A stretch of 24,000 nt of DNA from Aliivibrio finisterrensis (GCF_008933155.1 NZ_WBVP01000024.1:2571-26570), one strand, 5' to 3'; shown: positions 1 to 18,700, numbered from the stretch's first letter. Translations and numbers: made by a program. Notes: generated by a model not told the origin, from the letters alone.

Positions 1-411
1 TAAGCGTAATAATGGCATGGCGAGAACGTAGAATAGACAGAAGCTGAGATGGTATAAGGTGTTTGGAATAAAGAGTAGGTTAAAAAAACCTTAAATATCA
101 ATACTTACTATGCTGAAGGCTAATATCTTTAGCTTAGTAAGTGTTCACTAAGCCTTATTAACATAAAAAAGTGTTCTGACGCACGTAATACAACATTAAG
201 TACCTATAAAGAAGTTATCCGGAATCTAAGTCCTTTCATTTCCTATAATATCAATAACTTAAATATTGATAATTTTCACGTTGAAAATAAAATCAGATAA
301 TGGATTGAAAATCACATCAACGTGCAGCCCAGATCTTTTAGTCGTAAAACAAAATTACGAATTAATTGAAATATTAGAATGGATAAAAATTTATACGAAC
401 ATCCTCGATGA

Positions 412-1566
412 TTAATCTTGAAGCAATAAATTTGGACTATTATCATTGCTTAAACCGCGCAAGTATCTCAATACCATCTCGTTACTCTTCCAATCCCCTA
501 GTTGGATCAGTTGCGTTAAACTTAAACCCGCTTTATAACCGTCCTGTAATGCACCGACTCGACTAGAGTGTCCACTCCACACTTTTCGATGCGCTCCGCC
601 ACTAGTGACAACGTCACCTCTGTCGAGCAGGAGTTTATGCGCACGTTGGTAAATGCGATCAATCGTCATTCCTGACATGGGCGTCTGGCGGTAACCTGCG
701 GGTCGATCTCCTTTTACGGTTAACCAACAAAAAATGAACTCCTCTTCACTAAGCCCCTGGCAATACACGTAAAGATAGCGTTTTACAATGGCTGAAAACC
801 GACCGGTTAATCGCTTTGGCTCTGGGCTGATAGTCGTTTTTGAGGTGACACGTTCGATATTTATATCGCCACAATCTAAGATCTTAATGTGTTTTTTACG
901 TATTTTCCCTATTTCTCCTTCACGCAATAAGGTGCCGTAAGCGAGGGTTAATACTGTCAGATCTCGGTATTGAATCGCTATTTTCTCGTTACCCCATATG
1001 TCCATTAAGCAAGTGAGATGGTGCTTATGAAAGGGTTTGGCTTGTAATTCTATGGTTTGAGTTCCGGTCAATTCCATTTCATCTTTGGCTAATGAACTAA
1101 AAAAATGAGCAACGACAGGCAGTTTGGTGCTGTCCGTTGCATTCATGATCTTATGAAATAGGCTTAATTGCGCTCGGTATTGTTTTAAGGTGTTTATTTT
1201 GTTTTCCTGATCTAACTTCATTGATTTGAACCAGGCTAACAATACCGGGGCATGAATAGGAAAACTGTACACCGAGAGATCTTTGCAATGCTCATCCCAT
1301 TTTCTCACCACAAAGGCCAGCATTTTTAAGGTGTTAGTACTCAACCCCCCTCGGTTTTCTTCAAAGTCAGCCAGATGAAGCAAGCTGTTAGGCAACTCTG
1401 GCCAGTCGGGATCGAAGCTGTGACTCAGATCGGGAAAGTTGAGTTTAAAGCGACTGAGGTGTTGTTGCTGTTGTGCCCACTGTTGATGGATTTCATCGTG
1501 TTTCTTCAAGTGTGACAGGGTCACCTCTGACTGCTTAATTAGCGGAAGGTGGATGGTATTTGCCAT
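412..1566 (-). CDS. Cre-like tyrosine recombinase (phage P1 Cre family)
   Basis: 384-aa ORF. C-terminus WSGHSSRVGALQDGYKAGLSLTQLIQLGDWKSNEMVLRYLRG aligns by eye with Cre WSGHSARVGAARDMARAGVSIPEIMQAGGWTNVNIVMNYIRN (H-x-x-R, Trp, catalytic Tyr). LAYGTLLREGEIGKIRKKHI...VTSKT matches Cre IAYNTLLRIAEIARIRVKDI...GRTKT (Arg, Lys). N-terminal TLKMLAFVVRKWDEHCK resembles Cre TWKMLLSVCRSWAAWCK. Confidence 0.88.
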   Translation of the reverse strand: MANTIHLPLIKQSEVTLSHLKKHDEIHQQWAQQQQHLSRFKLNFPDLSHSFDPDWPELPNSLLHLADFEENRGGLSTNTLKMLAFVVRKWDEHCKDLSVYSFPIHAPVLLAWFKSMKLDQENKINTLKQYRAQLSLFHKIMNATDSTKLPVVAHFFSSLAKDEMELTGTQTIELQAKPFHKHHLTCLMDIWGNEKIAIQYRDLTVLTLAYGTLLREGEIGKIRKKHIKILDCGDINIERVTSKTTISPEPKRLTGRFSAIVKRYLYVYCQGLSEEEFIFCWLTVKGDRPAGYRQTPMSGMTIDRIYQRAHKLLLDRGDVVTSGGAHRKVWSGHSSRVGALQDGYKAGLSLTQLIQLGDWKSNEMVLRYLRGLSNDNSPNLLLQD

Positions 1567-1584
1567 GACGACGTCCCTACTCAG

Positions 1585-1618
1585 GTTGTGTGATATAAGT
1601 GTAATTATATCACACTAT
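1585..1618. promoter_or_regulatory. Candidate lox-like core site or operator (13-8-13 inverted repeat)
   Basis: GTTGTGTGATATA-AGTGTAAT-TATATCACACTAT. The inner 10-11 bp of each arm are perfectly complementary (GTGTGATATAA / TTATATCACAC) and the central spacer is asymmetric. It lies 19 bp upstream of the Cre-like start codon. The geometry matches loxP (13-bp arms, 8-bp spacer). Confidence 0.4.
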
Positions 1619-1679
1619 TTTTTATACTAACGGGAACGCAATAGAAAATCGTGACACTGTTCATCCATACATGAAAAAC

Positions 1680-1708
1680 TTGACTCTTTTCGTGGTCGCC
1701 ATTATTAT
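1680..1708 (+). promoter_or_regulatory. Sigma70-type promoter for the leader and 497-aa gene
   Basis: TTGACT (1680-1685), a 17-nt spacer, then TATTAT (1703-1708). The predicted start near 1715 coincides with the foot of a perfect 8-bp 5' hairpin (CATTCTGG-CACAT-CCAGAATG, 1714-1734). Confidence 0.55.
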
Positions 1709-1713
1709 TAACG

Positions 1714-1933
1714 CATTCTGGCACATCCAGAATGTGGGATTAGTACCCCTCTATTATCAGGAATAGCAGGCAGAAATGTCTGCTATGTGCTCTTGCACAC
1801 CCAAACAATGGTGAGCTGAGTAAGGCGACCTTGCGTCGGCCGTTCCTGATAACGGTAGTACTAACCTTATTTAGCTCGCCACCCAAAGATTAGTACCTTT
1901 TGGTGGTGAGAATATTACCTATCAGGAGGTCAC
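1714..1933 (+). promoter_or_regulatory. Structured 5' leader with duplicated target boxes (a1/b1 upstream, a2/b2 over the ribosome-binding site)
   Basis: ATTAGTAC occurs at 1739-1746 and 1889-1896. TATCAGGA occurs at 1755-1762 and 1920-1927, and the second copy overlaps the AGGAGG SD (1924-1929) before the ATG at 1934. Both motifs are complementary to the single segment 1843-1864. The hairpin 1879-1888/1897-1906 displays the second ATTAGTAC in its 8-nt loop. Confidence 0.6.
1810..1885 (+). ncRNA. Candidate c4-like antisense RNA embedded in the leader (~76 nt)
   Basis: An 8-bp closing helix, GGTGAGCT (1810-1817) with AGCTCGCC (1873-1880, one G-U), is followed by ACCCA. Inside are a hairpin at 1824-1841 and the hairpin CCGTT-CCTGAT-AACGG (1840-1855), which presents the b' core in its loop. 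b' is TTCCTGATAA (1843-1852) and a' is GTACTAA (1858-1864). Size and box order mirror the P1/P7 c4 RNA. The ends are inferred, not observed. Confidence 0.5.
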
Positions 1934-3427
1934 ATGATCAAACTACCCACACTTGCTGAGTGCATTTCGCGCACTTGCGATTCACTCACGACCGATATTA
2001 TTGATGACACCGCCATAAGATCCATTTTTTGTGGTGGTAAGTTGTCTGCATCTGCGTTACTTCAACACGTCTTTCCAGAGCACGATTTCACACAAAAGCA
2101 GTTCAACCGTCGTGCTCAACACGCAGAATTTAAAATTGCACTAGCGCGACCGCTAACCCACTTTCTTTCCATTCATTACCCCTCAACAGTAGATCCGGAG
2201 CGTCACCTTTTTACCTTTAAGTACAGTGACTTAAGTGAGAGTGAGTTCGTTGAGTTAGCCGCTGACTACCGCTGTTTTGGAGAGATGAAACGACAAAATG
2301 ACACCCTGGCAAAAACGATCATTGCGCTCGATAAGCATCAACACCGACACATTCAGAATGCAATAATGGCAGCGTATCCTACCTATTTGCGGACTCAACG
2401 GTACGTAGTGAGTGACACTGTCACGCTTCAGTCATTCCCAGAGGTGCTGGTTTATCGCTTATTAACTCAATTACACTTCACTTTTACTTACGACTATGCC
2501 TCTAATGCGCTCGGTAAAAAGAAGCCGTATTCGATTGATTTTGTGATCCACGATGAAGCCAATACCCCGTTGTTCGGCATTGAAGTCGCTCGAAATGATC
2601 ATGAGAAAAGAGACTCCGCTTCCGTCGCTTACCACCGTCGTAATCTCAAAAAAGCCATTGCCTACCGCGACAATGAAGATTTTGAGGTGTTTTTTATCAA
2701 TAGCAATCAACCCGAAGCCCACTTTTTTAACGACGTCATTACTTTATTAACACAAGAATTTGGCGAAGATATTGGGCCATTCCCGACACTTGAGGCCTGC
2801 TCTGTGTACCAAAAGCCCGAATATGCTCAATTTTTGGCCATGGCGCCAAACGCGCTCATCGACTACATCGTTGACGAGTTAGGAGGCGTGTCTGCGCTTA
2901 TTAATCAGCATTCTTCGTTGCACCATTTTTTACAGCGCCATTATTCGAATACTAACCTGGCTTACGATCAGATCTATCAACACGCAAAAGCAATGGGTAG
3001 CACAAAGAAAACAGCCAGAACGGCCCGCACTCGAAAGGGCATCAGCAACAATAAATACCATGATGTTGTGGCCTTACCTCGACAGAAATTAATCACTTAT
3101 CTTCGAGCGCAAGGGTACTTCACTCGCTATATGCTAAAAAATACCAATCCAGCGTTATTGCGGGTTTTGACGGAGTATTGGGGGACGGACGTTGATGGAT
3201 TATTGTCAAGATTAGAGTCGAGTTCAAAGAAAGAACTGAGCGAGATCCGCTATTATTTTCGTTCATTATCTCTCGATTTATCCTCCACCCAATCAGCAAG
3301 AACCGCGATAAAAAAGGTCCCTCATTTATTCAGTGTGAAAGCCTTTCACCTCAATTATTTTTCTAAGCGCTTATACCGAGCGCTAAAAGAAAGACATGAT
3401 TATTCACTGATAATCAATAACTTGTAA
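1934..3427 (+). CDS. Hypothetical 497-aa protein with a central PD-(D/E)xK-like (DUF559/DUF2726-type) core
   Basis: Strong SD (AGGAGG, 4-nt spacing). The central block SFPEVLVYRLL...YSIDFVIHDEANTPLFGIEVARNDHEKRD resembles the nuclease-fold signature S-x-x-E ... DFv(i) ... l-x-IEv-x-x-x-x-H. The motif PTLAEC (aa 5-10) recurs as PTLEAC near aa 285. The product is otherwise not recognisable. Function is low confidence; coding status is high confidence. Confidence 0.75.
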   Translation: MIKLPTLAECISRTCDSLTTDIIDDTAIRSIFCGGKLSASALLQHVFPEHDFTQKQFNRRAQHAEFKIALARPLTHFLSIHYPSTVDPERHLFTFKYSDLSESEFVELAADYRCFGEMKRQNDTLAKTIIALDKHQHRHIQNAIMAAYPTYLRTQRYVVSDTVTLQSFPEVLVYRLLTQLHFTFTYDYASNALGKKKPYSIDFVIHDEANTPLFGIEVARNDHEKRDSASVAYHRRNLKKAIAYRDNEDFEVFFINSNQPEAHFFNDVITLLTQEFGEDIGPFPTLEACSVYQKPEYAQFLAMAPNALIDYIVDELGGVSALINQHSSLHHFLQRHYSNTNLAYDQIYQHAKAMGSTKKTARTARTRKGISNNKYHDVVALPRQKLITYLRAQGYFTRYMLKNTNPALLRVLTEYWGTDVDGLLSRLESSSKKELSEIRYYFRSLSLDLSSTQSARTAIKKVPHLFSVKAFHLNYFSKRLYRALKERHDYSLIINNL

Positions 3428-3433
3428 TATTTA

Positions 3434-3462
3434 ATCGCGTTAATCAGTCCGATTAACGCGAT
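3434..3462. other. Perfect 12-bp stem-loop just after the 497-aa gene stop
   Basis: ATCGCGTTAATC-AGTCC-GATTAACGCGAT. No U-tract follows, so it is not a canonical intrinsic terminator. It could be an RNA-stability or protein-binding element. Confidence 0.5.
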
Positions 3463-3480
3463 GGCAGATCTCAACATGTT

Positions 3481-3784
3481 GGGCTCTGTCGCAACGTTTT
3501 TCTTAAGTACAACGTGCCGAATTCCAGGCACGATTATGCAGCGAGCGCGTAAAAGCGCTCCCATACTGGCAACGAATCATCCCCAATAATCTGTCCTCGT
3601 TCAGTAAATAGTCGTCAATATCACGGTAGCTTAATTTGTAAGAAACGTAATAACGAACAGCTGGAGGATCACATCTTTTGGGTATGGAAACCAGAAAAAT
3701 TCATAAATAAGGATACAAAATGATAAACATTGAGCTTTGAGAGCTCATTTTTAGAAAAATTGCAATATAGATGCGACAGAGCCC
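3481..3784 (-). mobile_element. Internally deleted IS6-family (IS26-like) element, ~304 bp, with both terminal inverted repeats
   Basis: The ends GGGCTCTGTCGCAAC (3481-3495) and the complement of GATGCGACAGAGCCC (3770-3784) resemble the IS26 IR GGCACTGTTGCAAA. The minus strand keeps a frameshifted transposase N-terminus, MNFSGFH.. / ..PKDVILQ / ..AVRYYVSYKLSYRDIDDYL (compare IS26 MNPFKGRHFQRDIILWAVRWYCKYGISYRELQEML). The rest is deleted. The flanking 8-mers differ, so there is no target-site duplication. Confidence 0.7.
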
Positions 3785-4035
3785 CATATACGATAGAGGC
3801 TTAAATGGCAGAGTCTCTAGCAAAAATTAACGCTGAATTTCGCCATATTTTTGAGGAACTGTTCCAATATTATATTTATGATACAACCCAACGATTAGCA
3901 CCGAAAATGCCAAGCGTTGGGAATCACTCTTAAATTGCTTGTTGAACGAAGCCGCTTCGCGGCAGAGTAAAACCTGTATCGTCCATACTCTCTGTACCTC
4001 CATCATTTCGATGGCGGATAACAGGAGCAAATACC

Positions 4036-4425
4036 ATGAGCCCAACTGAACTAGAGCGATATCATCGCCTGTATGAATTACACCTTACCAACTTAACTCT
4101 GCAAGGTAAACGACCTGCTACCATTGATGCCTATTCTCGAGCGGTACGCCGGATTAGCAAGTTCTTTGACCGCTCTCCCGATACATTAAGCACGACTGAT
4201 TTAAAAAACTTCTTCGCCAGTTTAATTAGCACTCACTCGTGGAGCACCGTTAAACTCGACCGCAATGGCTTACAGTTTTTCTATCGCCACACTTTAAATA
4301 AACAATGGGTATGGCTTGATATCGTTAAACCTCCTCAATCTAAAAAACTGCCCGATATCATAACCCCACGACAAGTTCTATATAGGTATTTACTACAAAT
4401 GATATTTAAAAGCATTGTCGATTGA
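4036..4425 (+). pseudogene. 3'-truncated tyrosine recombinase (N-terminal SAM-like domain only)
   Basis: The first ~115 aa, ...TIDAYSRAVRRISKFF...DLKNFFASLISTHSWSTVKLDRNGLQFFYRHTLNKQWVWLDIVKPPQSKKLPDIITPRQV, is a typical integrase N-terminal core-binding domain of the type I recall next to IS91-family transposases. Homology stops near 4380 and the frame runs into unrelated sequence. No catalytic domain is present. Confidence 0.65.
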
Positions 4426-4525
4426 TAGTTCTCTCTTTCTATATTGCGAAAGACCTAGTTATGATATTACTTAGGTTTGTGAAAAAGAACACTACGCGGA
4501 AATCGTTATTGCAGATAGCTAAAAC

Positions 4526-4558
4526 GAAAAAAGCCACGTATAAAAGACGTGGCTTTTC
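4526..4558. terminator. Bidirectional rho-independent terminator
   Basis: AAAAGCCACGT-ATAAAAG-ACGTGGCTTTT. A 9-bp GC-containing stem is flanked by an A-run and a T-run. Confidence 0.7.
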
Positions 4559-4671
4559 CCTTAACTTTTGTCTTCGGTAGTCTGCAAAGCAGTGATGTGC
4601 CGAAGCTCTCATTTATAATAGTAAGCCTTTTTGATTCGGGCGTCAAATTCAACGGTTGTAGAGATTGCTAG

Positions 4672-5280
4672 ATGGATAATACCAAGATCATAAACACGCT
4701 TTCGACTTCTCGATTTAGTACTTATCTGTATGCCAGTAAGAAACATACCGGTAATGAAGATGAACAATTGGCACTAAAACTATATGAATGGAATGCAACG
4801 GTATCAAGCCATTACTTACTTCCCCTTCATGTTTTTGAAGTGTTTTTACGTAACCTGGTGAGTGAGGCGATTGAAAATCGATATGGTAAAGATTGGCCAG
4901 TTGATCCTCAATTCAACTACACTTTGAAACGTTATGAAAAAGCAGAGTTAGAATCTACGGTTAAAAAGCAAAAACATTACCGAGATGCAAATCAAGTTAT
5001 CCCTGAATTAAAGTTTTATTGGTTTGAACATCTACTGACTAAGAAACAAGATGTGCGTCTTTGGAAGCATAGAAACTTTCTCGAAAAGGCATTTCCCCAC
5101 TCCCCATATGAAACAGCTGAAGAACTAAGGCAAGAGCTGAGAGAGCGTTCAACTTTGATCCGAAACTTCAGAAACCGTTGTGCCCATCACGAACCTATTT
5201 TTTATCATCAGCATGTACTGAAAATCTATGAGTACATTGATGAAATCATTTATTGGCGATGTGCCGATACTCGTTCCTAG
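4672..5280 (+). CDS. Abi_2 family (AbiD/AbiF-like) abortive-infection protein, HEPN-type
   Basis: 202 aa. N-terminal LSTSRFSTYL and LYEWNATVSS..LPLHVFEVFLRNLV, plus C-terminal IRNFRNRCAHHEPIF (R-x4-H HEPN motif), match the Abi_2 family layout. Confidence 0.82.
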   Translation: MDNTKIINTLSTSRFSTYLYASKKHTGNEDEQLALKLYEWNATVSSHYLLPLHVFEVFLRNLVSEAIENRYGKDWPVDPQFNYTLKRYEKAELESTVKKQKHYRDANQVIPELKFYWFEHLLTKKQDVRLWKHRNFLEKAFPHSPYETAEELRQELRERSTLIRNFRNRCAHHEPIFYHQHVLKIYEYIDEIIYWRCADTRS

Positions 5281-5347
5281 CTAAACCAGATTGAAAAAAT
5301 CACACCATTAATCAAGGAACCTATTGTATAAAATCAATAATTATATT

Positions 5348-5368
5348 TCTGGGGACAATGGGGGTTGT
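5348..5368 (+). repeat. 21-nt exact direct repeat, copy A (partner at 15578-15598)
   Basis: TCTGGGGACAATGGGGGTTGT is identical at both loci. A further ~21 nt upstream is about 70% similar (5327-5347 vs 15557-15577). The sequences diverge completely just downstream. Confidence 0.9.
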
Positions 5369-5380
5369 TTTAGGGTATTA

Positions 5381-5824
5381 CTAACGTTTCCAATCGGTTA
5401 TATGCATTGAACTACGATAAAAGGCCGCTCTTCTATTTCTGAATAATAACTGTAAAGAATCGTAGTTTGCGATAAACATAGATTGAACCAATCCATCTAC
5501 TCTAGTAGTTAAAATGGATCGTAAGTGATAGGTAAAACTGCAGTCCAGTGGGGCTAACATATCGCAATTATCGAACCATAATAATGTCGGCTTTGAGATA
5601 GAGCGAATAGCTTCAAAGAAAGCGTCATTCTCAGAGCTGGCAAGCACTTCTTCAATTGACTCATACCGTGAAAAATCTAAATACAATACATTGATCCCTT
5701 CAGCTTGAGCTAAAGTTGTCGCTCTTGCAATAAAATCAGATCTTAAACATTCTTTTTCAGCAGAGAGAATACCTATATTGATATCCCACGCAGCCTCAAT
5801 AAATCTTTCTGGTGTAAGTTCTAG
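5381..5824 (-). pseudogene. Fragment of an AAA/ATPase_2-like ATPase (Walker B side only), fused in frame to a umuC remnant
   Basis: PTLLWFDNCDMLAP (a hhhhD-type Walker B-like motif) and NRRAAFYRSSMHITDW resemble the distal part of archaeal-type ATPase domains. There is no Walker A. The assignment is weak. Confidence 0.3.
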
Positions 5825-6110
5825 CATCATTAATTCCGTATTATTTGGGGTAAGGTTCAGCATATCAAATTGCTCATGCTTCCCATTGCTCAAGTCCAGC
5901 AAATCAACGCCTACTTTGTAATAATTAACACCTGGCTGAAATAATGTTTTAGCAAGCGAGGTAGCTACGGAAGTCAGTTGTGTTGCATCTGCCGTTGGAT
6001 AAGCAAAGTTATGAAGTGATTTACTGTTCACTGGCTTTTCATCAAAAGGGGCAACACATCATAATCTTACACAGCGAGCCTTGTTTTCTCGTAAGCGCTT
6101 AACTAACCAC
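5825..6110 (-). pseudogene. umuC: umuC (Y-family polymerase V subunit) 3' fragment
   Basis: The minus-strand translation ..VKRLRENKARCVRL*CVAPFDEKPVNSKSLHNFAYPTADATQLTSVATSLAKTLFQPGVNYYKVGVDLLDLSNGKHEQFDML..NNTELMM parallels the E. coli UmuC C-terminal region (..AAEKLR..C..SPF..PT.D...I..A...L..IW..G..Y.KAGVML.D......Q..LF.....SEQLM). It has an in-frame stop and lacks the 5' two-thirds. Confidence 0.6.
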
Positions 6111-6440
6111 ACATATCAATATTAAGCATGCTTTGCCATAGTACCTTTTTAATCGGAGGTACTATGGATCAGCAAAGTAAGGCGACTATTAGACTAATAT
6201 TTTAGAATAGCAGAAAAAGAGATAACCTATCTATCAAGTAATTAGTGCATAAAACAATCGGGTTTTCTAAAAGTGAAGAAATGAACGACAAGGTTATTGG
6301 AACGTTTATTTAGCGTGAGTATTATCTTTAGTCAACAGGTTGGAGTCATGACCTCTTTGTAGGTACTTATGTATAAATTAAGCGTGTAATTTATACATAA
6401 TTATAGAACCATATAAATAAAGCTAGCGTATTTTCTGTAA

Positions 6441-7534
6441 TGCCCTGATTTCAGATAATAAGTGCGACATTCATGGAAAGGTGTAGAAGAGGAAGCCAAC
6501 TGCTGAAAGTGGTATGCTCTTCTCGCCAAAGAAACAAGCAGTACTATCATGAATTATCAGCAGTTGACCGAGGGCAGAAAATACCAGATTTCTGCTCTTT
6601 TGGAACGGGGAATTTCGGTTTCTGAAATAGCTAAAACCGTTCAGTGCCATCGCTCTACGGTATATCGAGAGCTTAAACGCGGCAGCAAAGGCAGTCATTA
6701 TTGCCCAAACGAAGCTCAGGTATTATCAATCAAAAAACGCACATCAGCGCGTAAATACAGAATACCTCAGGAGCGGGTTGATTTTATCCGCCTCCTTTTA
6801 GAAGCGGATTGGAGTCCCGAGCAGGTTTCCAGTGTGTTAACTAAAATCGGTGCCACTGTTAGCCATGAATGGATCTACCGATTTGTTGCGCAGGATAAAC
6901 GATTGGGAGGCAAGTTATATCGCCACTTAAGACAAGGTCATAAGCGGTATCGCCGCGGTAGAAAAGAGAAAGCACCAGCGATCAAGAATGCTGTATCTAT
7001 CGATGATAGGCCTAGCATCGTTGACAGTAAGGAGCGATTGGGTGATTGGGAAATTGACACGGTATTAGGCAAACATGGTACTGGCGCTATGGTGACAATT
7101 TTAGAGCGTAAAACACGATTTTACGTAGTCAAGAAAGTACCATCGAAGTCAGCAGATGATGTCACTAAAGCCACCATAGAACTGCTCATGCCTTATAAGG
7201 AGCATGTTCATACCATCACGGCAGATAACGGGAGAGAGTTTGCAGGTCATGAAACCATCGCAAAGGCGTTAGAAGCTGATGTGTACTTTGCCCACCCTTA
7301 TAGTTCTTGGGAGCGTGGAGCGAATGAAAATGCTAACGGACTTTTAAGACAATATGTAAAGAAAGGAACCGACTTAACAACGGTCACAGATAGTGATATT
7401 GAATTCGCTGTATCACGAATAAATTATCGACCGAAAAAGTGTTTAGACTTCAAGCAACCAGCGATTGTCTTTAAAGAAATGGTATTGGCTGCTTGATATT
7501 GGCGAGTGTCGCACTTCGCAGTTGAATTCGGGCA
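6441..7534 (+). mobile_element. IS30-family insertion sequence, apparently intact (~1.09 kb)
   Basis: The imperfect terminal IRs are TGCCCTGATTTCAGATAATAAGTGCGACA (left) and the complement of TGTCGCACTTCGCAGTTGAATTCGGGCA (right). They share a TGCCC tip and an AAGTGCGACA core. A single transposase ORF fills the interior. No clear 2-3 bp target duplication was found. Confidence 0.85.
6549..7496 (+). CDS. IS30-family DDE transposase
   Basis: 315 aa. An N-terminal HTH (ISALLERGISVSEIAKTVQCHRSTVYRELKRG) is followed by RLGDWEIDTV..., ITADNGREFAGH and YFAHPYSSWERGANENANGLLRQY, the canonical IS30 catalytic blocks. Confidence 0.93.
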   Translation: MNYQQLTEGRKYQISALLERGISVSEIAKTVQCHRSTVYRELKRGSKGSHYCPNEAQVLSIKKRTSARKYRIPQERVDFIRLLLEADWSPEQVSSVLTKIGATVSHEWIYRFVAQDKRLGGKLYRHLRQGHKRYRRGRKEKAPAIKNAVSIDDRPSIVDSKERLGDWEIDTVLGKHGTGAMVTILERKTRFYVVKKVPSKSADDVTKATIELLMPYKEHVHTITADNGREFAGHETIAKALEADVYFAHPYSSWERGANENANGLLRQYVKKGTDLTTVTDSDIEFAVSRINYRPKKCLDFKQPAIVFKEMVLAA

Positions 7535-7608
7535 CAATTGTTAACGACACAACTTACACCAAATTAAAAAATAGGTGTAAACAATAAAGGTGAAACCAAA
7601 GTTATTCA

Positions 7609-7800: not shown

Positions 7801-8175
7801 TTAATTTAAATCTTCAGTTTTGAGTGAGATGTCACAATTTCTTGGCTCTGGTACTGTCACTTTTACGTTATATAACAAGAAAAATTTATTCAAAATTGAA
7901 TACTTTTCTCTTCTTGTTTTATCACTTTCATTCGTTGTTCGTTTCCAGTACCTAATGATCTGAGCTTTTCCAATTGCTGATAGTCTCGGTTCTCCTTCTT
8001 TTGTCATAATTTCATCTAAGATCGCAACTAAACGAGTCATTTGTTTTTTTTTGTAAGCTGATTTTTTACCCTTACTTGTGTATGAACTCATTATTTGTCT
8101 TATCTGAAACTGTAATTGATTATGCATAGTGCTATCCAAGATAATTATTTGTGATCGATACGCGCTCGTGTCCAA
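7801..8175 (-). CDS. Small protein resembling the N-terminal domain of Integrase_1-type recombinases (domain-only paralogue or truncated gene)
   Basis: 124 aa. LVAILDEIMTKEGEPRLSAIGKAQIIRYWKRTTNESDKTRREKYSILNKFF resembles the recalled Phage_int_SAM_2-type signature (g..qvi.yW.r....s..T...yy.al). It overlaps the upstream gene by 44 nt and has no catalytic domain. Confidence 0.45.
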   Translation of the reverse strand: MDTSAYRSQIIILDSTMHNQLQFQIRQIMSSYTSKGKKSAYKKKQMTRLVAILDEIMTKEGEPRLSAIGKAQIIRYWKRTTNESDKTRREKYSILNKFFLLYNVKVTVPEPRNCDISLKTEDLN

Positions 8176-9091
8176 GTTCGTTAGATATCTGTAATCTAGT
8201 ATTGTGATCTAGAATTTTGGCATCAGCTAACGTGATATTTTTCTCATTTGCGATATATTGAAGATGTGATTTACCGTGTTTTTCTTGTGATCGAACAGGG
8301 CTTTTTACTCCTGAAATTTTTTCATATCTATCGTTTGCATAATTGTGTCTTTCGCCATGAAATTTAATATTAGTTTGTTGTATCTCACGGTAGCATTGAG
8401 ATTGATACTGACTCCATTTCATATCACTTGGTATCAGACTTCTGTCGTTACACTGTATCGCTGCTGCATTCTTAAGAGCTGTAAGTTGCTTATCACTACT
8501 AACCTTGAACTCTCTTAACTTTCCGCCTTTTGTTCCATTTTCTACTCTGATGATCCCATTTTTTACTGCATGATCTAATGTGTTTTTTGCATCAATTAAA
8601 GACGATTCTTTAAATCGTAAACCTAACTCCCTTTGTAGTTCTAATTGAACTGAGAGTCGATCTGGAACTTGAGATAGTGCTGTTTCATGTGACTCTTTAT
8701 CAACGCTATGATCGTATGTTGCAATGCCTGTGCGTTTCGGTAAGCCGGCTTCTCTAACTCCGTCAACTCTACAATCACGATCTAAACGAGCGTTTTCTAA
8801 AGCGACATTTACTTTGCTTAAGTAGTTCTGAGCAGAAGATGCACTTATTTGGTCATTTTCAAATTTATTATTCAGCTCGTTTGCATAACTAAGAACGTGA
8901 GATTTCTCAACTTTTTTAAGATCGTTGATGCCCTGGTCTTCTTTTAAATGTTTTGCGAAATCGTTAAGAGCTGTCTTGCATTGATTCTTTGAATTGTCTC
9001 CGTTCTCCTTCATTTGATATGCCGTTACTAACGCTCTACTCATATTGCTTGAGCGTAATCCGAAATTTCTAGCATTCATGTTTCTGTTCAT
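8132..9091 (-). CDS. Integrase_1-type tyrosine recombinase-like protein (plasmid or prophage integrase-domain protein)
   Basis: 319 aa. Candidate catalytic set: LGLRFKESSLI (Arg), GTKGGKLREF (Lys), HGERHNYA (H-x-x-R), LGHERVSITNNYLG (His and terminal Tyr). The N-terminal part has the SAM-like pattern (SHVLSYANEL...SAQNYLSKVNVAL). Confidence 0.7.
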   Translation of the reverse strand: MNRNMNARNFGLRSSNMSRALVTAYQMKENGDNSKNQCKTALNDFAKHLKEDQGINDLKKVEKSHVLSYANELNNKFENDQISASSAQNYLSKVNVALENARLDRDCRVDGVREAGLPKRTGIATYDHSVDKESHETALSQVPDRLSVQLELQRELGLRFKESSLIDAKNTLDHAVKNGIIRVENGTKGGKLREFKVSSDKQLTALKNAAAIQCNDRSLIPSDMKWSQYQSQCYREIQQTNIKFHGERHNYANDRYEKISGVKSPVRSQEKHGKSHLQYIANEKNITLADAKILDHNTRLQISNELGHERVSITNNYLG

Positions 9092-11612: not shown

Positions 11613-12538
11613 TTATAACTTCTTAGTTCGTAATGCTATTTCATTTCTAACACGGTCTTCTGTAATTTTGTCACAAATAGATGCGTAGTCTGCAATTTTA
11701 CGTAAATCAGCTAACGTTAATTTTTCTTTATTATCGTACTGCTTCAACTGTACTTCATACTCAAGAAGTAAAGCTAAGTTCTTACGCATCCAAACACCTT
11801 CTTCATGTGAGCCTTTCAGAACTTTCGGTCGACGAAAAAGACGAGGGCGAAGCGGTTTCATGCATGATTCATCTTTTTCAAGAACATAATTAAACTGGAT
11901 AGCATCTACTTTTCTTCCATTTTTTACTGGTTTCCAGATAACAGAAATATCTGTTTTTGCATTAATTTGCTCAACCGCTGGATTTATTACTTTAGCTTTA
12001 AATACATCCCATCTTTCATATTTACCCTCTAATCCAGATTGCTTTTTCATCCATTCCAGATCTAAAGACACTTTTATAGTTCCATTTTCTTTTGAAGAAT
12101 TTAAATTCTTAGCTTCATTAAACCATTGGTACAAACGATATGAGAACGGGGACGTTAACTTCGCAGCTTCTTCAAATTTAATAGATGTGAAATTTTATTT
12201 AATATCGACTAGATATGGTGCAAGTTCTGGGTTAAATGTCATTTTTATTGAGGTGCCGTAATCTGCATTATCGTACTCATTAGAAGATAACCAAAACAAT
12301 TCTCTTACTCTACTTGAGTCAGCGACAGGTAAGACTAATGGTTTCCTTCCGATACCTTTTACGGCAACTCGTAAAGAACGATAAACATTCTTAGAATCAA
12401 CATTAAAAAGACGTACAAATTCAGATGGTAATATCTCAATTTCTTTAAGCTCTGATTTTAAGCTATCAATTTTACTCATCGCTAAAAAGAGTAATCTCAT
12501 TTCATCTAAGTTCAAAGAATAAGCAGCTTCAACTAGTT
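11613..12538 (-). pseudogene. rep: Rep_3-family plasmid replication initiator, inactivated
   Basis: The two track ORFs (12195-12515 and 11613-12134) are in the same frame. ...PYLVDIK-TAA-NFTSIKFEEAAKLTSPFSYRLYQWFNEA... is interrupted by a single in-frame TAA (12192-12194). Typical Rep_3 blocks are present: ELVEAAYSLNLDEMRLLFLAMSKI, SPFSYRLYQW, and INPAVEQINAKTDISVIWKPVKNGRKVDAIQF. The extreme 5' end and promoter are missing at ~12538. Confidence 0.75.
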
Positions 12539-12553: not shown

Positions 12554-12717
12554 CTGACCATAGCGTAACTATGTTCGATAAAGGGTTCTATTCATTAGGA
12601 TTACTACATAAATGGCAGATGACAGGCTCAGAGCGTCACTGGCTTATTCCCCTTAAAAAAAATACTCAATATGAAATAATTCGATCGCTAGGTCGTAATG
12701 GTAAAACCAAGACCTAA
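12553..12717 (+). pseudogene. Internal fragment of an IS4-family transposase gene
   Basis: The translation PDHSVTMFDKGFYSLGLLHKWQMTGSERHWLIPLKKNTQYEIIRSLG resembles the E. coli IS4 transposase block ..MFDKGYYSLGLLNAWSLAGEHRHWMIPL.KG.QYEEIRKLG. No start and no ends are present. Confidence 0.65.
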
Positions 12718-12736
12718 ACGATATGCCAGAAACAAG

Positions 12737-12766
12737 AATGCCGTTCACCCTTAAGTGAACGGCATT
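12737..12766. other. Perfect 12-bp stem-loop at a mosaic junction
   Basis: AATGCCGTTCAC-CCTTAA-GTGAACGGCATT, between the IS4 fragment and the duplicated gene fragment. Confidence 0.5.
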
Positions 12767-12767
12767 A

Positions 12768-12920
12768 CCGCTGTGGTGGCCTTACCTCGATATAAATTAA
12801 TCACTTATCTTCGAGCGCAAGGGGACTTCACTCGCTATATTCTAAAAAATACCAACCCAGCGTTATTGCGGGTTTTGACGGAATATTTGGGTACGGACGT
12901 TGATGGATTATTGTCAAGAT
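12768..12920 (+). pseudogene. Fragment of a second, diverged copy of the 497-aa gene (matches 3062-3212)
   Basis: The 145-bp core (12776-12920 vs 3068-3212) has 8 mismatches, about 94% identity. It encodes VALPRYKLITYLRAQGDFTRYILKNTNPALLRVLTEYLGTDVDGLLSR versus VALPRQKLITYLRAQGYFTRYMLKNTNPALLRVLTEYWGTDVDGLLSR. Homology ends abruptly on both sides. Confidence 0.85.
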
Positions 12921-13013
12921 CCATTACGTGTGTAGCGTGGGAAATGGCAGCAAGTAAACCAGAACAAACTGGAATGATTTGCACACTGGCCTTATTGCTT
13001 TGGATGTTGCACA

Positions 13014-14381
13014 TTATCCATGCAATTGACGCCACTTTTCTAACTGAGACGGCCTTAGACCGTATCTAGCCAGTACTCCCTCGTGGATTCGTCTTAACTC
13101 TTCTAATGCAAGGGCAATAATGTTTTGCTTATCCGTGTCTTCTTCATTGCGAATAAACGATTCAATGATATCAAGGGGTTGAGATTCAGGCGTCAGTATG
13201 ACTTGTTTAACAATCTCCTTTATCTTTGCTCGATATTGCAAGCGTTGTTGATCTGGCTTTACTAGCTCTTGTTTAACGGCTAGGTATTCTTTTGTTGAGC
13301 GCTCGTACGCCCATAAATACAGATCACGAAGCAGCTCAATTCTATTCATTTCGTACACACCAAGTACCGCTTTGCTGTAGGCTTCTTCCGGTACATCTAA
13401 AAATGTAAGAGGACATACGTTGGCTTTAAGCAACGGAATATTTGCAGCCAAACGAGAAGTGCGTTTATTAATGTCAGCAAAGGGTTGCAGGTAAGGTAAA
13501 TGCACCATAATAAAAAATGATTGTTCAAATGGATCGATGATTTGATTGGCTTTATTGAGTACCGCTTCTAGTTGAATAGAGAGCACCTCTTCAGATGACA
13601 TCGGTTTATAGACACTCCCGCCGATTTCAACAACATGACTACGCACTCGTCCTTCATCAAACGGGTTGGATAATAAGTTTTCTGAAAGCGCACTGTGCAA
13701 ATTCAATATTGTAAAACGATTGAACTCAACGGTATCGACATTATCAATCAGCAATTCAATCGCTGATTTATGATTTAAAATCATCTGTGTCTCGATGATG
13801 TCTTTTCCTTGTGCAAACTGGCCATGCTCAATTAACTCAACAGTGTCTAATCGACTATAGGTATTGCCCTCAAGGTGGCTTGATGCCCAAGATAAGTCGA
13901 TTAATAAGCGGTTGTAGATGTCTCTTCCATACGTGCCCGCAGGTTGCGTTGCATAGATGGTTTTTCCCATGCGATGTAACTGACGGCGAATAGGCTCAGA
14001 AAGGTAGTATGTTTTATTTGGAGTATAATCATTTAAAAAATCACGAGCATAACCAACGGGTTCACGCTCAAAAATAGGCTTATCTAAATAATTAAGAATG
14101 TCATGGCTATCTGGTGAGAGTGGGATCGATTTTGGAAAACTATCATACTCATTATCGGTTGAATTGATAGCCACTTCTCTAACAATACGCGCAATGTATT
14201 TACGAGAACGACCGTCACCAATGACTTCTATCTGTTTATCTTCAATCAGTATGTTAAGCCAGCGCTGAAGCGTACGACGAATTAAATCTGGATGATCACT
14301 AATAATGTCGGAAATAGACACAGGGTGGCATTGCTGCTCGATATAACGCTGGATTTCAAACCTATTCATGACATAAACCAT
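13014..14381 (-). CDS. Fic-domain protein with an N-terminal winged-helix domain, a Fic_N inhibitory motif and a degenerate active-site loop
   Basis: 455 aa. N-terminal wHTH-like ISDIISDHPDLIRRTLQRWLNILIEDKQIEVIGDGRSRKYIA. WASSHLEGNTYS matches (S/T)xxxE(G/N). The Fic loop reads HLPYLQPFADINKRTSRLAANI where HPFx(D/E)GNGRxxR is expected: Gln replaces the catalytic His and NK replaces GNG. The start may be the ATG at 14381 or at 14369. Confidence 0.82.
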   Translation of the reverse strand: MVYVMNRFEIQRYIEQQCHPVSISDIISDHPDLIRRTLQRWLNILIEDKQIEVIGDGRSRKYIARIVREVAINSTDNEYDSFPKSIPLSPDSHDILNYLDKPIFEREPVGYARDFLNDYTPNKTYYLSEPIRRQLHRMGKTIYATQPAGTYGRDIYNRLLIDLSWASSHLEGNTYSRLDTVELIEHGQFAQGKDIIETQMILNHKSAIELLIDNVDTVEFNRFTILNLHSALSENLLSNPFDEGRVRSHVVEIGGSVYKPMSSEEVLSIQLEAVLNKANQIIDPFEQSFFIMVHLPYLQPFADINKRTSRLAANIPLLKANVCPLTFLDVPEEAYSKAVLGVYEMNRIELLRDLYLWAYERSTKEYLAVKQELVKPDQQRLQYRAKIKEIVKQVILTPESQPLDIIESFIRNEEDTDKQNIIALALEELRRIHEGVLARYGLRPSQLEKWRQLHG

Positions 14382-15724: not shown

Positions 15725-15769
15725 TCACCTCGAGAAACGAATTCGAATTCGAATTCGAATTCGAGGTGA
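15725..15769. repeat. 45-bp near-palindrome containing (GAATTC)4 across the 3' end of the giant gene
   Basis: TCACCTCGA-GAAAC-GAATTCGAATTCGAATTCGAATTC-GAGGTGA. The outer 9-bp arms are complementary and the core is four tandem EcoRI sites (15739-15762). On the coding strand it reads CCT(CGAATT)4CGT TTC TCG AGG TGA, giving P(RI)4RFSR-stop. Confidence 0.95.
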
Positions 15770-18700
15770 AATTAATCGAATGCACAACAGCATTAATAGT
15801 AATATTGAGTATATTGTTATACTACCACCTGATGCACCACTAGATTCAGGCTGTGTTGCTGATATTTCTGCTGAATAATTAATATTCATATCAACTGTAC
15901 CAACCGCACCATCTAATTGGACGGTAAACGTTAATGCCTGTGCAGAGCGATACCAACTCGGAATTTGTAAATCAATACGAGTGCCACTGTTAGCAGTAAT
16001 GTTAGTCGTTACATACTTAGATGTGATGCTAACGACTTGAAGTGATTCACAATCAGTCACAGCGATATAGTCACAAAGATCAATATCTACAGAGAAATTT
16101 AGAGGAATATTGTCAGGATTATAAGTAATAACATAATCAAAAGGATCGATATTTAAGCTAGGAATAGAACTGTAAACGTAACTTGGGTCGTCAATATTAT
16201 CATCATGGTTATTATCTCCATCGTGTCGCCCACCATCTTTGATAGTCATTTCAATACAATAACCACCGACTACAATCTCTTCTTGATAAAGAGAAGAATG
16301 AGGAGGAGGACAATTGCCAAGTTCCCCTCTTGCGTACTTAAGATTACTGCCATCTTCGCTTTCGTCAAAGTCAAACCAGCCTTCTTGGTCCGTGTATTTA
16401 CGTAAAATGCTGCCTGACGACAAAGGTTCTAACAGCGGAATAACTACAATACTGCTTTGTGAGTTTTGATTACGAACCGTAAAGTTGAACACATTTTCGG
16501 ATGAATAATTAGGGTTAGTTGAGTCATCAGGAATAATACCAGACAGTGTGCTTGCATTAATATAAGGTGAGCTTGCGTCAATTTTATTAGATAGTTGGCC
16601 TAGTATGAGGCAATCACCTGGTGTTGACTCAAAGATCAAACTTAAACTGGTATTAACAGCATTGCTTTGTAGTTCACAATCATCAATAGGATCGAGATAA
16701 TTCGGTATCATGTCGTTATCGAAATCGGCAAATCCTTCTTCGGCATCAGTTAGACCATCGTTATCTGTATCCATGTCTAGGCTTAGCTCGACTTCTTCGA
16801 CTATCCGTAGCGATGTTTTGCCGACGATAGGTTGTTGTTCTAAGCCTAACGGGTATGCGGTAAATGTAAAGTCGTAACGACCTGTCTCTTTAAGCTCTGG
16901 CAAGATGAGAGGTTCATAATTGCTCGTCTGTCCCGCACTTTCTTCTGAGATATTTGGCCCACTATAGTACCAATCGATGATCACGCTATTATCATCATCT
17001 AATGGTACATTGCTGTTAATGATGATATTTAAGTCAGATAGTGAAGCCGGAGTGGCTATAGATACAATATTATTATCTGCGTTATAAAAATTAGCATTTA
17101 GCGTTATTGGCTGCTTATCTTCAGATATAGTAAGGACTGCTTCTGATAATGGTCCGGTATGAACATTACTTGCGAAACTAAGGTGCAACGTTTCTTCACC
17201 TTCGTTAAGGTTGTCTTCATAAATATCAATTTCAAGAATACCTTCTGTCCCCGATGTGATAACGACGTCATTGGTATTTAAGAGTGATACAGAATGATCG
17301 TTATTATCACTCGTACTTTCGGTGCTAACTATAACGGGTATCGTAACCGGATAGCTTGGCGCTGAGCCACTGAGTTTAATTCTAATCTGAGCAGTTGTGC
17401 CTTCATAGGTAGTAGACATCGGGATAAATTCGGCGTAAGGGGTAATATTAACTTGCTGACTAACGATTTGAGTTGTGTTCCTTGCTGCATCAACAGCCTG
17501 CCAATAAATCACATGAGAGCCAGAACGAAGCAATAGTGTGCCATCATATAATGAAACTGGGATCGGAACACCGTTAATGTCAGTTGCTTTTGGAGAGAAT
17601 ATCTCTATACGATTAAATAATCCGGTTGCTTTTAAATCGAGACTAGGGAGCTCTTCAAACTCTGGCTTGTCTGTTTGAAGGCTATCTGATTCTAACTTTA
17701 TGAGTCCTTTATTGCTTGAACCATGCTGATCAGCAATTACGTACTCGATATACCACGAGGCAGGTAAATTAGTTGGTAAAGTATATTGTATTTTATTATC
17801 CACTATCGCGATGTTACCAAATTTACTCTTAGCACTAACAAGAGTAATTTGATCGCCTTCATCAGTGTCGTAATCATTGTCTAGTGGCGAAAGTGTAATT
17901 GTTGTTGATGGTTCAACTTTCACACTGTCATCAAGCGCAATAGGGGCATTATTTTTGTTAACCACAGGCGGTAAAGGCTCTCCTGTCAATAACTGGCTCA
18001 TATAGTATCGGTCACTGTAGAGCACTCTATATATCGAAGCATCTATCACGCTGGTTTGCACTGCTTTCACCTGAACCCAACCAAGTGAGGCTACATTTGT
18101 TACTAAATCTTGGAGTGATGAATAGACTCTATTAGGATCACTTGCGTCAAGATATTGAAGTTCAAGTGTAAATAGCCCTGACTCTTGTCCGTTATTTTCG
18201 AGTGGTGATGAGCTAATAAGTGCGGTTCGAGAACTTCGAACTACAGGCTTATTAGGGGCCAGTACGAGTTTACTATACCAAGATTCCATTGACGCTTTAT
18301 TCGTATCGGATTGGACTGCTGCCTCACTCAATGCATATTGACTGACTAAGCTATCACCATCTTGGTAGACGAGATGTAATAACACATATTTATCACTTAC
18401 ACCGCTGTCTGTAGAAATCCAGCGATTTGAATTGTGTATGTCATTAGGATCATCTAACACGTACCATGTTTTGCTAACCACATAATCACTCGATGACAAT
18501 AGCTCACCATCTTGAGAAAAAGTAATGTCTGCCGTTAGAGGCGTATCTAGGTAAATAGGGTTTGGCATTTCGATATGCACTTTAAGTTTATCCAGTTGAT
18601 TGTCTTGTGGTGATACGAAATCGGATAATACTTGTCGCGCGACACGAGTTTGAGTATCACTGTTTAGTGTCGCTTCAACGCCTACGTAGTAATTAAGATC

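Follow-up and report, generated by a model that had tools for sequence, protein, structure and literature searches.

The locus described here raises the question of why a leader resembling the immI immunity region of phages P1 and P7 should stand in front of a gene that is neither icd nor ant, in DNA where no phage is visible. It occupies positions 1680–3427 of a 24,000-nt stretch of Aliivibrio finisterrensis DNA (GCF_008933155.1, NZ_WBVP01000024.1:2571-26570), which we call the window, counting positions from its first letter. A first-pass annotation had described a P1/P7 immI-type c4 circuit, in which two short boxes (a1, b1), an antisense RNA carrying their complements (b′, a′) and a second pair of boxes (a2, b2) placed over the Shine-Dalgarno (SD) sequence precede a gene for a 497-aa protein, and had put it forward as an undescribed regulatory module. 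The circuit is upheld by a covariance-model match and by a geometry like that of the annotated P1 region, and we consider it very probable that 1680–3427 constitutes a C4/immI-type antisense-RNA operon, in which a C4 RNA processed from the leader blocks translation of the 497-aa gene. The claim of novelty did not survive: the RNA belongs to Rfam family RF01695, close relatives are present in Vibrio P2-like phages, and both c4 and a separate c4-a1b1 motif were reported from Proteobacteria and phages by Weinberg et al. (2010; PMC2864571), whose prediction of the c4 motif in Vibrionales is noted in PMC5320573. The regulatory principle is already known; the cargo is unusual.

The RNA at 1804–1886 is a genuine member of the P1-type C4 family. 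It matches the complete Rfam C4 antisense RNA model (RF01695, + strand, model positions 1–87 of 87) with 57.7 bits (E-value 5.9e-9) against a gathering score of 45 bits, and it is the sole Rfam match in the window, where no other family reached its gathering score. Two homologous loci, L001 and L002, score 57.7 and 58.5 bits, respectively. The minimum free energy (MFE) fold, of −35.6 to −36 kcal/mol, has the C4 topology, with a long closing stem around two hairpins, and this topology is identical in all variants and in P1 c4. The closing helix consists of 17 bp (1810–1826 with 1864–1880); thus, from the first-pass description of a unit of about 76 nt closed by an 8-bp helix, the size of the unit stands, while the helix is longer than supposed. 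The core of b′, CCUGAU, forms the loop of hairpin 2 in the MFE folds, as had been proposed, and a′ is located in the joining segment, the unpaired run of which is AGUACUAA. In an RNAalifold analysis of eight aligned C4s, compensatory changes on both sides were found at 15 of 26 pairs. The sequence hallmarks of RNase P processing, a 5′ GG(U) and a CCA-like 3′ tail, are present as well: ATGGTG is invariant in all eight, and the 3′ end reads GCCACCCA, its GCCACC being common to P1 and the window-type loci, with ACCACC in the Vibrio phage copies. By analogy, RNase P would be expected to cut before G1810, between AU and GGUG, giving an excised unit of about 74–76 nt from G1810 to C1883 or A1885, with C1883 as the P1-equivalent 3′ end.

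The boxes around this RNA were confirmed to the base, both for the two pairs (1739/1889 and 1755/1920) and for the antisense segment TTCCTGATAACGGTAGTACTAA (1843–1864), which holds the complements of both boxes in inverted order. The sequence TATCAGGA, common to b1 and b2, starts at 1755 and 1920 and occurs nowhere else in the 24 kb. Upstream, the antisense segment pairs over 7 bp with the a box and 10 bp with the b box, as described earlier; downstream, it forms 7 bp plus 8 Watson-Crick pairs, so that the 9 bp previously given hold only when a G-U pair is counted. The second b box does cover the SD, since b2 (1920–1927) overlaps AGGAGG (1924–1929), and the ATG of the 497-aa open reading frame (ORF) follows at 1934. 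The joint occurrence of all four boxes by chance has p ~6e-11 in mononucleotide shuffles of the transcribed leader (93 nt upstream and 51 nt downstream). The whole leader is preceded by the near-consensus promoter that the first-pass annotation had recognized, whose −35 element and upstream flank are kept in L001, L002, and L030; the transcript is expected to start near 1715. The 5′ leader hairpin directly upstream of a1 has a counterpart in Vibrio phage O395, where it is followed by GGGATTAGTACCCC.

Folding of the leader outside C4 may matter too. In the unprocessed transcript, a2 is predicted to be able to occupy the 8-nt loop of an alternative hairpin formed by GCUCGCCACCCAAAG with CUUUUGGUGGUGAG; the same loop display is predicted for L002 and O395, and the P1 fold is less clear. 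When C4 is excised, the 5′ end of the mRNA (1886–1950) is predicted to form a single long hairpin (−21.9 kcal/mol, z −3.5) that buries both a2 and the SD; before excision, the 3′ strand of the stem is able to pair downstream instead and to expose a2 in the 8-nt loop. According to these models, such alternative folding could provide an additional layer of cis control. The sequence CTGTTCATCCATACAT (1657–1672), located 8 nt upstream of the −35 element, has one mismatch to the LexA core CTGT-N8-ACAG and is nearly invariant across four loci, with one substitution, in L001. LexA control was dropped, as equally good matches are no more frequent in the window than chance predicts (9 against 11 expected).

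Natural variants argue for a working circuit. L001 and L002 are two more full-length loci in which recombinase, C4, and 497-aa gene are arranged alike, and L030, from a sample shared with L002, covers the recombinase, the leader, and the gene up to about codon 137. Together with the window, they comprise three b-specificities and two a-specificities. The window and L001 share a′ GUACUAA with TTAGTAC at a1 and a2, and b′ UUCCUGAUAA with TTATCAGGAA at b1 and TATCAGGA at b2. In L002, a′ is GUUCGAAU and both a boxes are ATTCGAAC, with b′ UCCUGUGAU, b1 ATCACAG, and b2 ATCACAGGA; L030 has the same a′ and a boxes (the a1–a′ covariation in both being ATTCGAAC with GTTCGAAT) combined with b′ UCCUAUG, b1 CATAGGA, and b2 UAUAGG. 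Every box change in C4 is matched at both target sites, and compensation is thus found at all three sites, in agreement with the covariation across homologues that the first-pass annotation had proposed to look for. In crude duplex energies, the cognate target is the best one for five of six C4 RNAs, by 2–13 kcal/mol. The loci offer a clean natural case of three-site compensatory evolution, involving an antisense RNA and both of its target pairs, and the three specificity variants are ready-made orthogonal RNA/target pairs for work on cross-talk.

Comparison of the same loci demonstrates that the specificity cassette has been swapped independently of the surrounding genes. Between the window and L002, the gene is 96–100% identical in most 50-nt bins, whereas the C4 region is only 55–80% identical; between the window and L001, the gene is ~83% identical (dS, the synonymous divergence, 0.5) and the stretch from a1 to the SD 98%. 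The RNA cassette of ~190 nt thus has an evolutionary history separate from that of the flanking genes. Its nearest RNA relatives are found in Vibrio phage O395 (K139-like, AY147036), in phage 10N.286.54.F9_PE001 (PQ189358), and in the V. alfacsensis phage-plasmid plas3 (CP140106). The a′-to-SD stretch is 78.5% identical to that of O395, and the homology to O395 and PE001 is clear through the 3′ stem, a2, the next hairpin, and GGAGGTCAC(T)ATGA; from the start codon on, there is none. The cassette is thus an immI-type unit of phage origin that was re-attached, at the initiation codon, to a different gene, and the P1-type C4 switch emerges as a portable part, placed here before a non-antirepressor gene in non-phage mobile DNA. 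A specific C4 DNA pattern gave no match in metagenome contigs; a looser one retrieved 12 loci from viral contigs, one of which (L019) is a real C4, in a high-GC phage, preceding a Bro-N+ANT protein.

As for the controlled gene, dN/dS values of 0.19–0.24 reveal purifying selection on a real coding gene. Its product is very rare (2 clusters among 5.8 billion and 8 relatives among 1.84 billion cluster representatives) and had no match in GTDB genomes or IMG/VR; its alignment is too divergent for locus searching. No Pfam, NCBIfam, or PADLOC family was matched, including ANT, Bro-N, Rha, and KilA, which agrees with the earlier statement that the gene is not icd or ant. The nuclease-like core also claimed there finds its sole sequence hint in a PHROG homing endonuclease match (E 0.0025), a PDB profile search having given none, and is borne out by fold matches. 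AF2 (AlphaFold2) produced an unusable model from the single sequence (predicted local distance difference test score, pLDDT, of 34), while with a 10-sequence alignment the core around residues 160–290 reached pLDDT 83–94. The model comprises a helical N-terminal region (residues 1 to ~150), a restriction-endonuclease-like core (~160–260), a helical region with a conserved G-x5-N-x2-S motif, and a C-terminal third of low confidence. Foldseek comparison with the viral models of BFVD returned 14 matches at E ≤ 1e-3, namely restriction enzyme, DUF2726, VSR homing endonuclease, and DUF559. Residues S167, E170, D202, F203, E217, Y233, and K240 of the core are invariant. We read the protein as having a predicted nuclease fold of the PD-(D/E)xK type, a class defined by an alpha-beta-beta-beta-alpha-beta core, with putative activity. 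It resembles the Vsr/DUF2726/DUF559-type nucleases in the predicted fold of the core and in the conserved acidic residues E170, D202, and E217, but differs in belonging to none of these sequence families and in its large additional helical N- and C-terminal regions.

A natural 610-bp deletion (L003–L005) is flanked by the 13-nt direct repeats CACATCCAGAATG (1722–1734, which takes in part of the 5′ leader hairpin) and CACATTCAGAATG (2348–2360). It removes everything from a1 through codon 137 and is present in seven contigs from three sources (JGI, ENA, and Logan). This is the only natural variant without C4, and what is left of the gene is split into ORFs of 190 and 112 aa. A broken gene in the C4-less variant fits, without proving it, a gene that is not tolerated in the absence of its control. 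The deletion endpoint of L003 coincides with the contig end of L030 near 2345; a recombinase site at this position was considered and discarded, as the 13-nt direct repeat explains the coincidence. A second, partial copy of the gene is found in the window at 12772–12920, within an ORF at 12755–13069 (+ strand), where a segment for residues 378–426, with 94% DNA identity to 3064–3212, is fused to unrelated sequence. The 72 nt preceding it (12697–12768) match a spot in L030 near an IS240-type transposase gene. The fragment seems to be left over from a further copy of the module.

The P1/P7 c4 mechanism (Citron and Schuster, 1990; Hartmann et al., 1995, as summarised in PMC5320573 and PMC12197685) suggests how the operon could work. 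A single promoter would give a leader with a1-b1, the C4 RNA, and a2-b2 over the SD, followed by the 497-aa ORF. RNase P would then release the C4 of ~75 nt by cutting at AU/GGUG, beside its tRNA-like 3′ end, and b′ in the hairpin loop together with single-stranded a′ would pair with a2/b2 on the same or a sister transcript, blocking ribosome binding. Translation of the gene would be confined to times when there is little C4 for the amount of target, i.e., briefly after entry into a naive cell, or upon C4 titration or a surge of transcription; a1/b1 would represent a second, upstream copy of the target. Our preferred interpretation is that the 497-aa protein acts on DNA as the effector of an element of Vibrio, plasmid-like or an island, and has to be kept from being made where that element is established. 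Under this view, the different C4 specificities would be immunity types between co-occurring elements, as in P1/P7. A very rare and unnamed nuclease-fold protein family is flagged here, and the tight RNA control predicted for it suggests potent activity.

Several findings weigh against this interpretation. No repressor or antirepressor partner is visible in the window, and the logic of a lysis/lysogeny switch is therefore not transferable. The catalytic motif departs from the textbook (D/E)xK, as E217 is followed two residues on by Ala and then by R/Q, and K240, though invariant, is located elsewhere than the Lys expected for this motif; the PDB fold list is headed by restriction-endonuclease-like folds, none of which is individually significant (best E 0.014). 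In L030, b2 pairing is weak (5 contiguous bp, or 6 with G-U), and its C4, which shares the a box with L002, pairs slightly better with the L002 target than with its own. The related loci stem from only a handful of samples. Finally, distant homologues of the protein (24–30% identity), located in variable islands, have no C4 upstream in the three contexts fetched (P0003–P0005), which makes the link between RNA and protein recent and narrow; the idea of an ancient partnership was abandoned on this ground.

The same RNA mechanism would also serve a different biological role, that of an RNA-antitoxin or abortive infection (Abi) system with the 497-aa protein as the toxin and C4 as the antidote, which we regard as possible but unlikely. 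If the element were lost, or if C4 were shut off or titrated in the course of a phage infection, translation would go ahead, and the cell would be killed or arrested. In favour of this role, the antisense RNA would occlude the SD of a nuclease-fold protein, defence and Abi-type cargo is found nearby (an Abi_2/PD-T4-5-like protein at 4672–5280), CARF, DUF87, and DUF2357 genes adjoin the module in L001, the homologues reside in variable islands, and the gene is broken in the variant lacking C4. Yet the protein has no PADLOC match, and with one promoter for C4 and its target a shut-off of transcription removes both; moreover, RNAs of the C4 type resemble tRNA and should be stable, in contrast to a labile antitoxin. 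We find it improbable that C4 is kept mainly for action in trans against resident or incoming vibriophages of the K139/O395 type, e.g., by silencing their antirepressor, with control of the 497-aa gene being secondary. The a′ shared with O395 and the extent of identity up to the SD speak for it, as do crude energies of −17.1 kcal/mol for the O395 C4 on the window target (cognate −19.0) and −13.4 kcal/mol for the window C4 on the O395 target (cognate −24.9). However, the latter duplex is much weaker than the cognate one, and one inserted base sets the b′ sequences of the window and O395 apart. Within the element family, moreover, the two cis target pairs have stayed perfect and changed in step with the RNA, as cis control predicts.

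Encounters with phages enter also into a further, quite improbable scenario, in which C4 serves as the sensor in a defence or exclusion module triggered by RNA and, in an established cell, keeps a DNA-cutting effector untranslated until a matching leader arrives. If so, the leader of an incoming K139/O395-type phage or related element would soak up or swamp C4 and release the nuclease-like protein, and the three b- and two a-specificities would be recognition types of an arms race, beyond immunity types. That the leader is an inert relic, a vibriophage immI fragment that recombined onto an unrelated ORF and now regulates nothing, is scarcely credible. The phage-module homology does end exactly at the start codon, and the surroundings are a junkyard of broken mobile-element genes. 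Against this, the compensatory changes at three sites across three specificity classes argue strongly, the a1-to-SD stretch is 98% conserved between loci whose flanking genes have a dS of 0.5–1.3, and every full-length copy retains an intact promoter, SD, and fold. The features of the proposed operon are collected in Table 1 together with those of the adjacent recombinase.

Table 1. Positions of the features of the proposed C4 operon and of flanking elements in the window.
Feature	Position	Strand	Remarks
Cre-like tyrosine recombinase, 384 aa	412–1566	−	Pfam Phage_integrase; divergent from the leader
Perfect palindrome, 28 bp	1588–1615		GTGTGATATAA-N6-TTATATCACAC; 11+6+11, dif/lox-like layout
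Promoter, sigma-70-type	1680–1708	+	TTGACT-17-TATTAT; 10/12 consensus positions matched; drives the leader
5′ leader hairpin	1716–1732	+	TTCTGG-CACAT-CCAGAA; directly 5′ of a1; read from sequence
a1 target box	1739–1746	+	ATTAGTAC; core TTAGTAC, complement of a′
b1 target box	1754–1763	+	TTATCAGGAA; perfect 10-nt complement of b′
C4 antisense RNA	1810–1885	+	Closing stem, hairpin 1, hairpin 2 (b′ loop), single-stranded a′, 3′ GCCACCCA
b′	1843–1852	+	UUCCUGAUAA; core CCUGAU in hairpin 2 loop
a′	1858–1864	+	GUACUAA; in unpaired joining segment
a2 target box	1889–1896	+	ATTAGTAC; complement of a′
b2 target box	1920–1928	+	TATCAGGA(G); complement of b′, overlaps SD
Controlled gene, 497-aa ORF	1934–3427	+	
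Perfect inverted repeat, 12 bp	3434–3462	+	ATCGCGTTAATC-N5-GATTAACGCGAT; 7 nt past the stop codon

The neighbouring gene, recognized as Cre-like already in the first-pass annotation, is so by sequence across its catalytic domain: the sole matches of a phmmer search against PDB are Cre and Tre, a recombinase derived from Cre (E 2e-27, residues 64–378). The palindrome, found in one copy in the window, separates this gene, of which it lies 22 bp upstream, from the C4 promoter. Eight fetched loci (L001, L002, L011, L013, L027, L028, L030, and L031) have both of its 11-bp arms intact next to the recombinase; they equal seven distinct contigs, as L031 is a re-fetch of the L001 contig. Among them are Vibrio fortis and Vibrio sp. 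D404a, with recombinase DNA of only ~70% identity. We consider the palindrome a candidate recombination site or operator; on the + strand, a T-run follows, hence it has a terminator-like score, too. Recombinase, C4, and 497-aa gene make up a 3.1-kb block (353–3477) shared with L001, beyond which the cargo differs. The inverted repeat behind the 497-aa gene marks the end of this conserved module and may act as a transcript-end hairpin, though it has no T-run. Alignment of the module boundaries revealed no shared repeat, and an integron-cassette or attC reading was dropped accordingly. Recombinase relatives in Vibrio fortis, V. metschnikovii, and Vibrio sp. D404a are without C4; three metagenome relatives on contigs of 1.6–2.3 kb stood outside the C4 scan. 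The V. metschnikovii locus (L012) contains a group II intron domain at 16510–16586 on the − strand (Rfam RF00029, 64.7 bits).

For the rest, the window is a patchwork of broken genes from mobile elements. Scanning of its ORFs against Pfam detected no phage structural or repressor genes; the same scan found a split Rep_3 gene, IS30, Fic, and Abi_2. The Rep_3 plasmid replication initiator (11613–12515, − strand) is divided into WH1 (12195–12515) and WH2 (11613–12134), probably as a frameshifted pseudogene, and suggests plasmid-derived DNA. Mobile-element debris spans 4036–7561 and includes an integrase N-terminal SAM-like fragment (4036–4425), the Abi_2/PD-T4-5-like protein (4672–5280), a UmuC C-terminal fragment (5381–6031), and an IS30-type transposase (6549–7496) within 26-nt imperfect inverted repeats (5810–5835 and 7536–7561); an Integrase_1 gene follows at 8132–9091. 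Just beyond the module, a stretch of ~310 bp (3479–3790) has inverted GGGCTCTGTCGC ends (3481 and 3787), and its first 123 bp are 89.5% identical to an Aliivibrio wodanis plasmid. A separate 40–60-bp element at 3885–3943 has copies on many Vibrio plasmids. Both sequences have the appearance of small repeat elements, similar to attC or to miniature inverted-repeat transposable elements (MITEs). A 455-aa Fic/DOC-domain protein (13014–14381, − strand) adjoins the fragment of the 497-aa gene; a Fic protein is encoded near the recombinase in L032 as well, beside ParA and ParB genes. A giant adhesin-like ORF of at least 2752 aa (15725–23983, − strand) contains bacterial Ig and cadherin-like repeats and internal 28-nt repeats (family D2).

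Among known systems, the closest parallel in layout, agreeing nearly base for base, is the immI region of P1, annotated in AF234172 with the P1c4/P2c4 promoters, a1, b1, a 77-nt c4, a2, b2, and the start of icd. Both loci share the order of promoter, a1, b1, C4, a2, b2 over the ribosome-binding site, and gene, and in both a1 and b1 start 61 and 75 nt from the start of the −35 element. The RNAs have the same fold, with b′ in a loop and a′ unpaired, the same ATGGTG at the RNase P site, and the same 3′ motif, and the natural specificity variants found here resemble P1/P7 heteroimmunity. In contrast to P1/P7, where the small icd ORF is translationally coupled to ant, the target here is one nuclease-like ORF; no C1-type operator or repressor was seen, and phage structural genes are missing from the ORFs scanned. 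A Cre-like recombinase with a dif/lox-like site is the direct neighbour, whereas in P1 cre is located far from immI.

In sequence, the C4 modules of Vibrio P2-like phages are nearer, with 73–78% identity across C4, a2, the 3′ hairpin, and the SD, Rfam C4 scores of 64–73 bits, and, in O395, an a′ and a box identical to those of the window. They differ in that an isrK-type element (RF01394) precedes their C4; a search of the window gave no match to it even at E ≤ 10, and the idea of such a leader element was rejected. They also differ in what follows, which is a gene of antirepressor type, Bro-N (O395) or Rha (PE001), or small ORFs, instead of the 497-aa protein. The C4-Rha module of PE001 (L035, 2388–3658) adjoins an annotated PD-T4-9 defence system and lies between replication gene A and the late genes, a place that represents a cargo hotspot of the P2 type.

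Phage-derived RNAs of the C4/isrK neighbourhood have been reused in other contexts too, as IsrK/AnrP of Salmonella Gifsy-1 and the C4-like small RNAs of Acinetobacter baumannii exemplify. IsrK activates and does not repress (PMC12197685), and the A. baumannii RNAs are apparently processed at GGW, as is c4 (PMC5320573). The A. baumannii copies have no established cis target, whereas the locus described here has explicit cis targets that covary with its RNA. A more distant analogy is offered by the CI RNA of satellite phage P4, a small structured RNA cut from the leader that it controls, with complementary sites upstream and downstream. P4 CI acts by transcription termination and represents a different RNA family; the likeness lies in an immunity RNA that is processed from its own target transcript.

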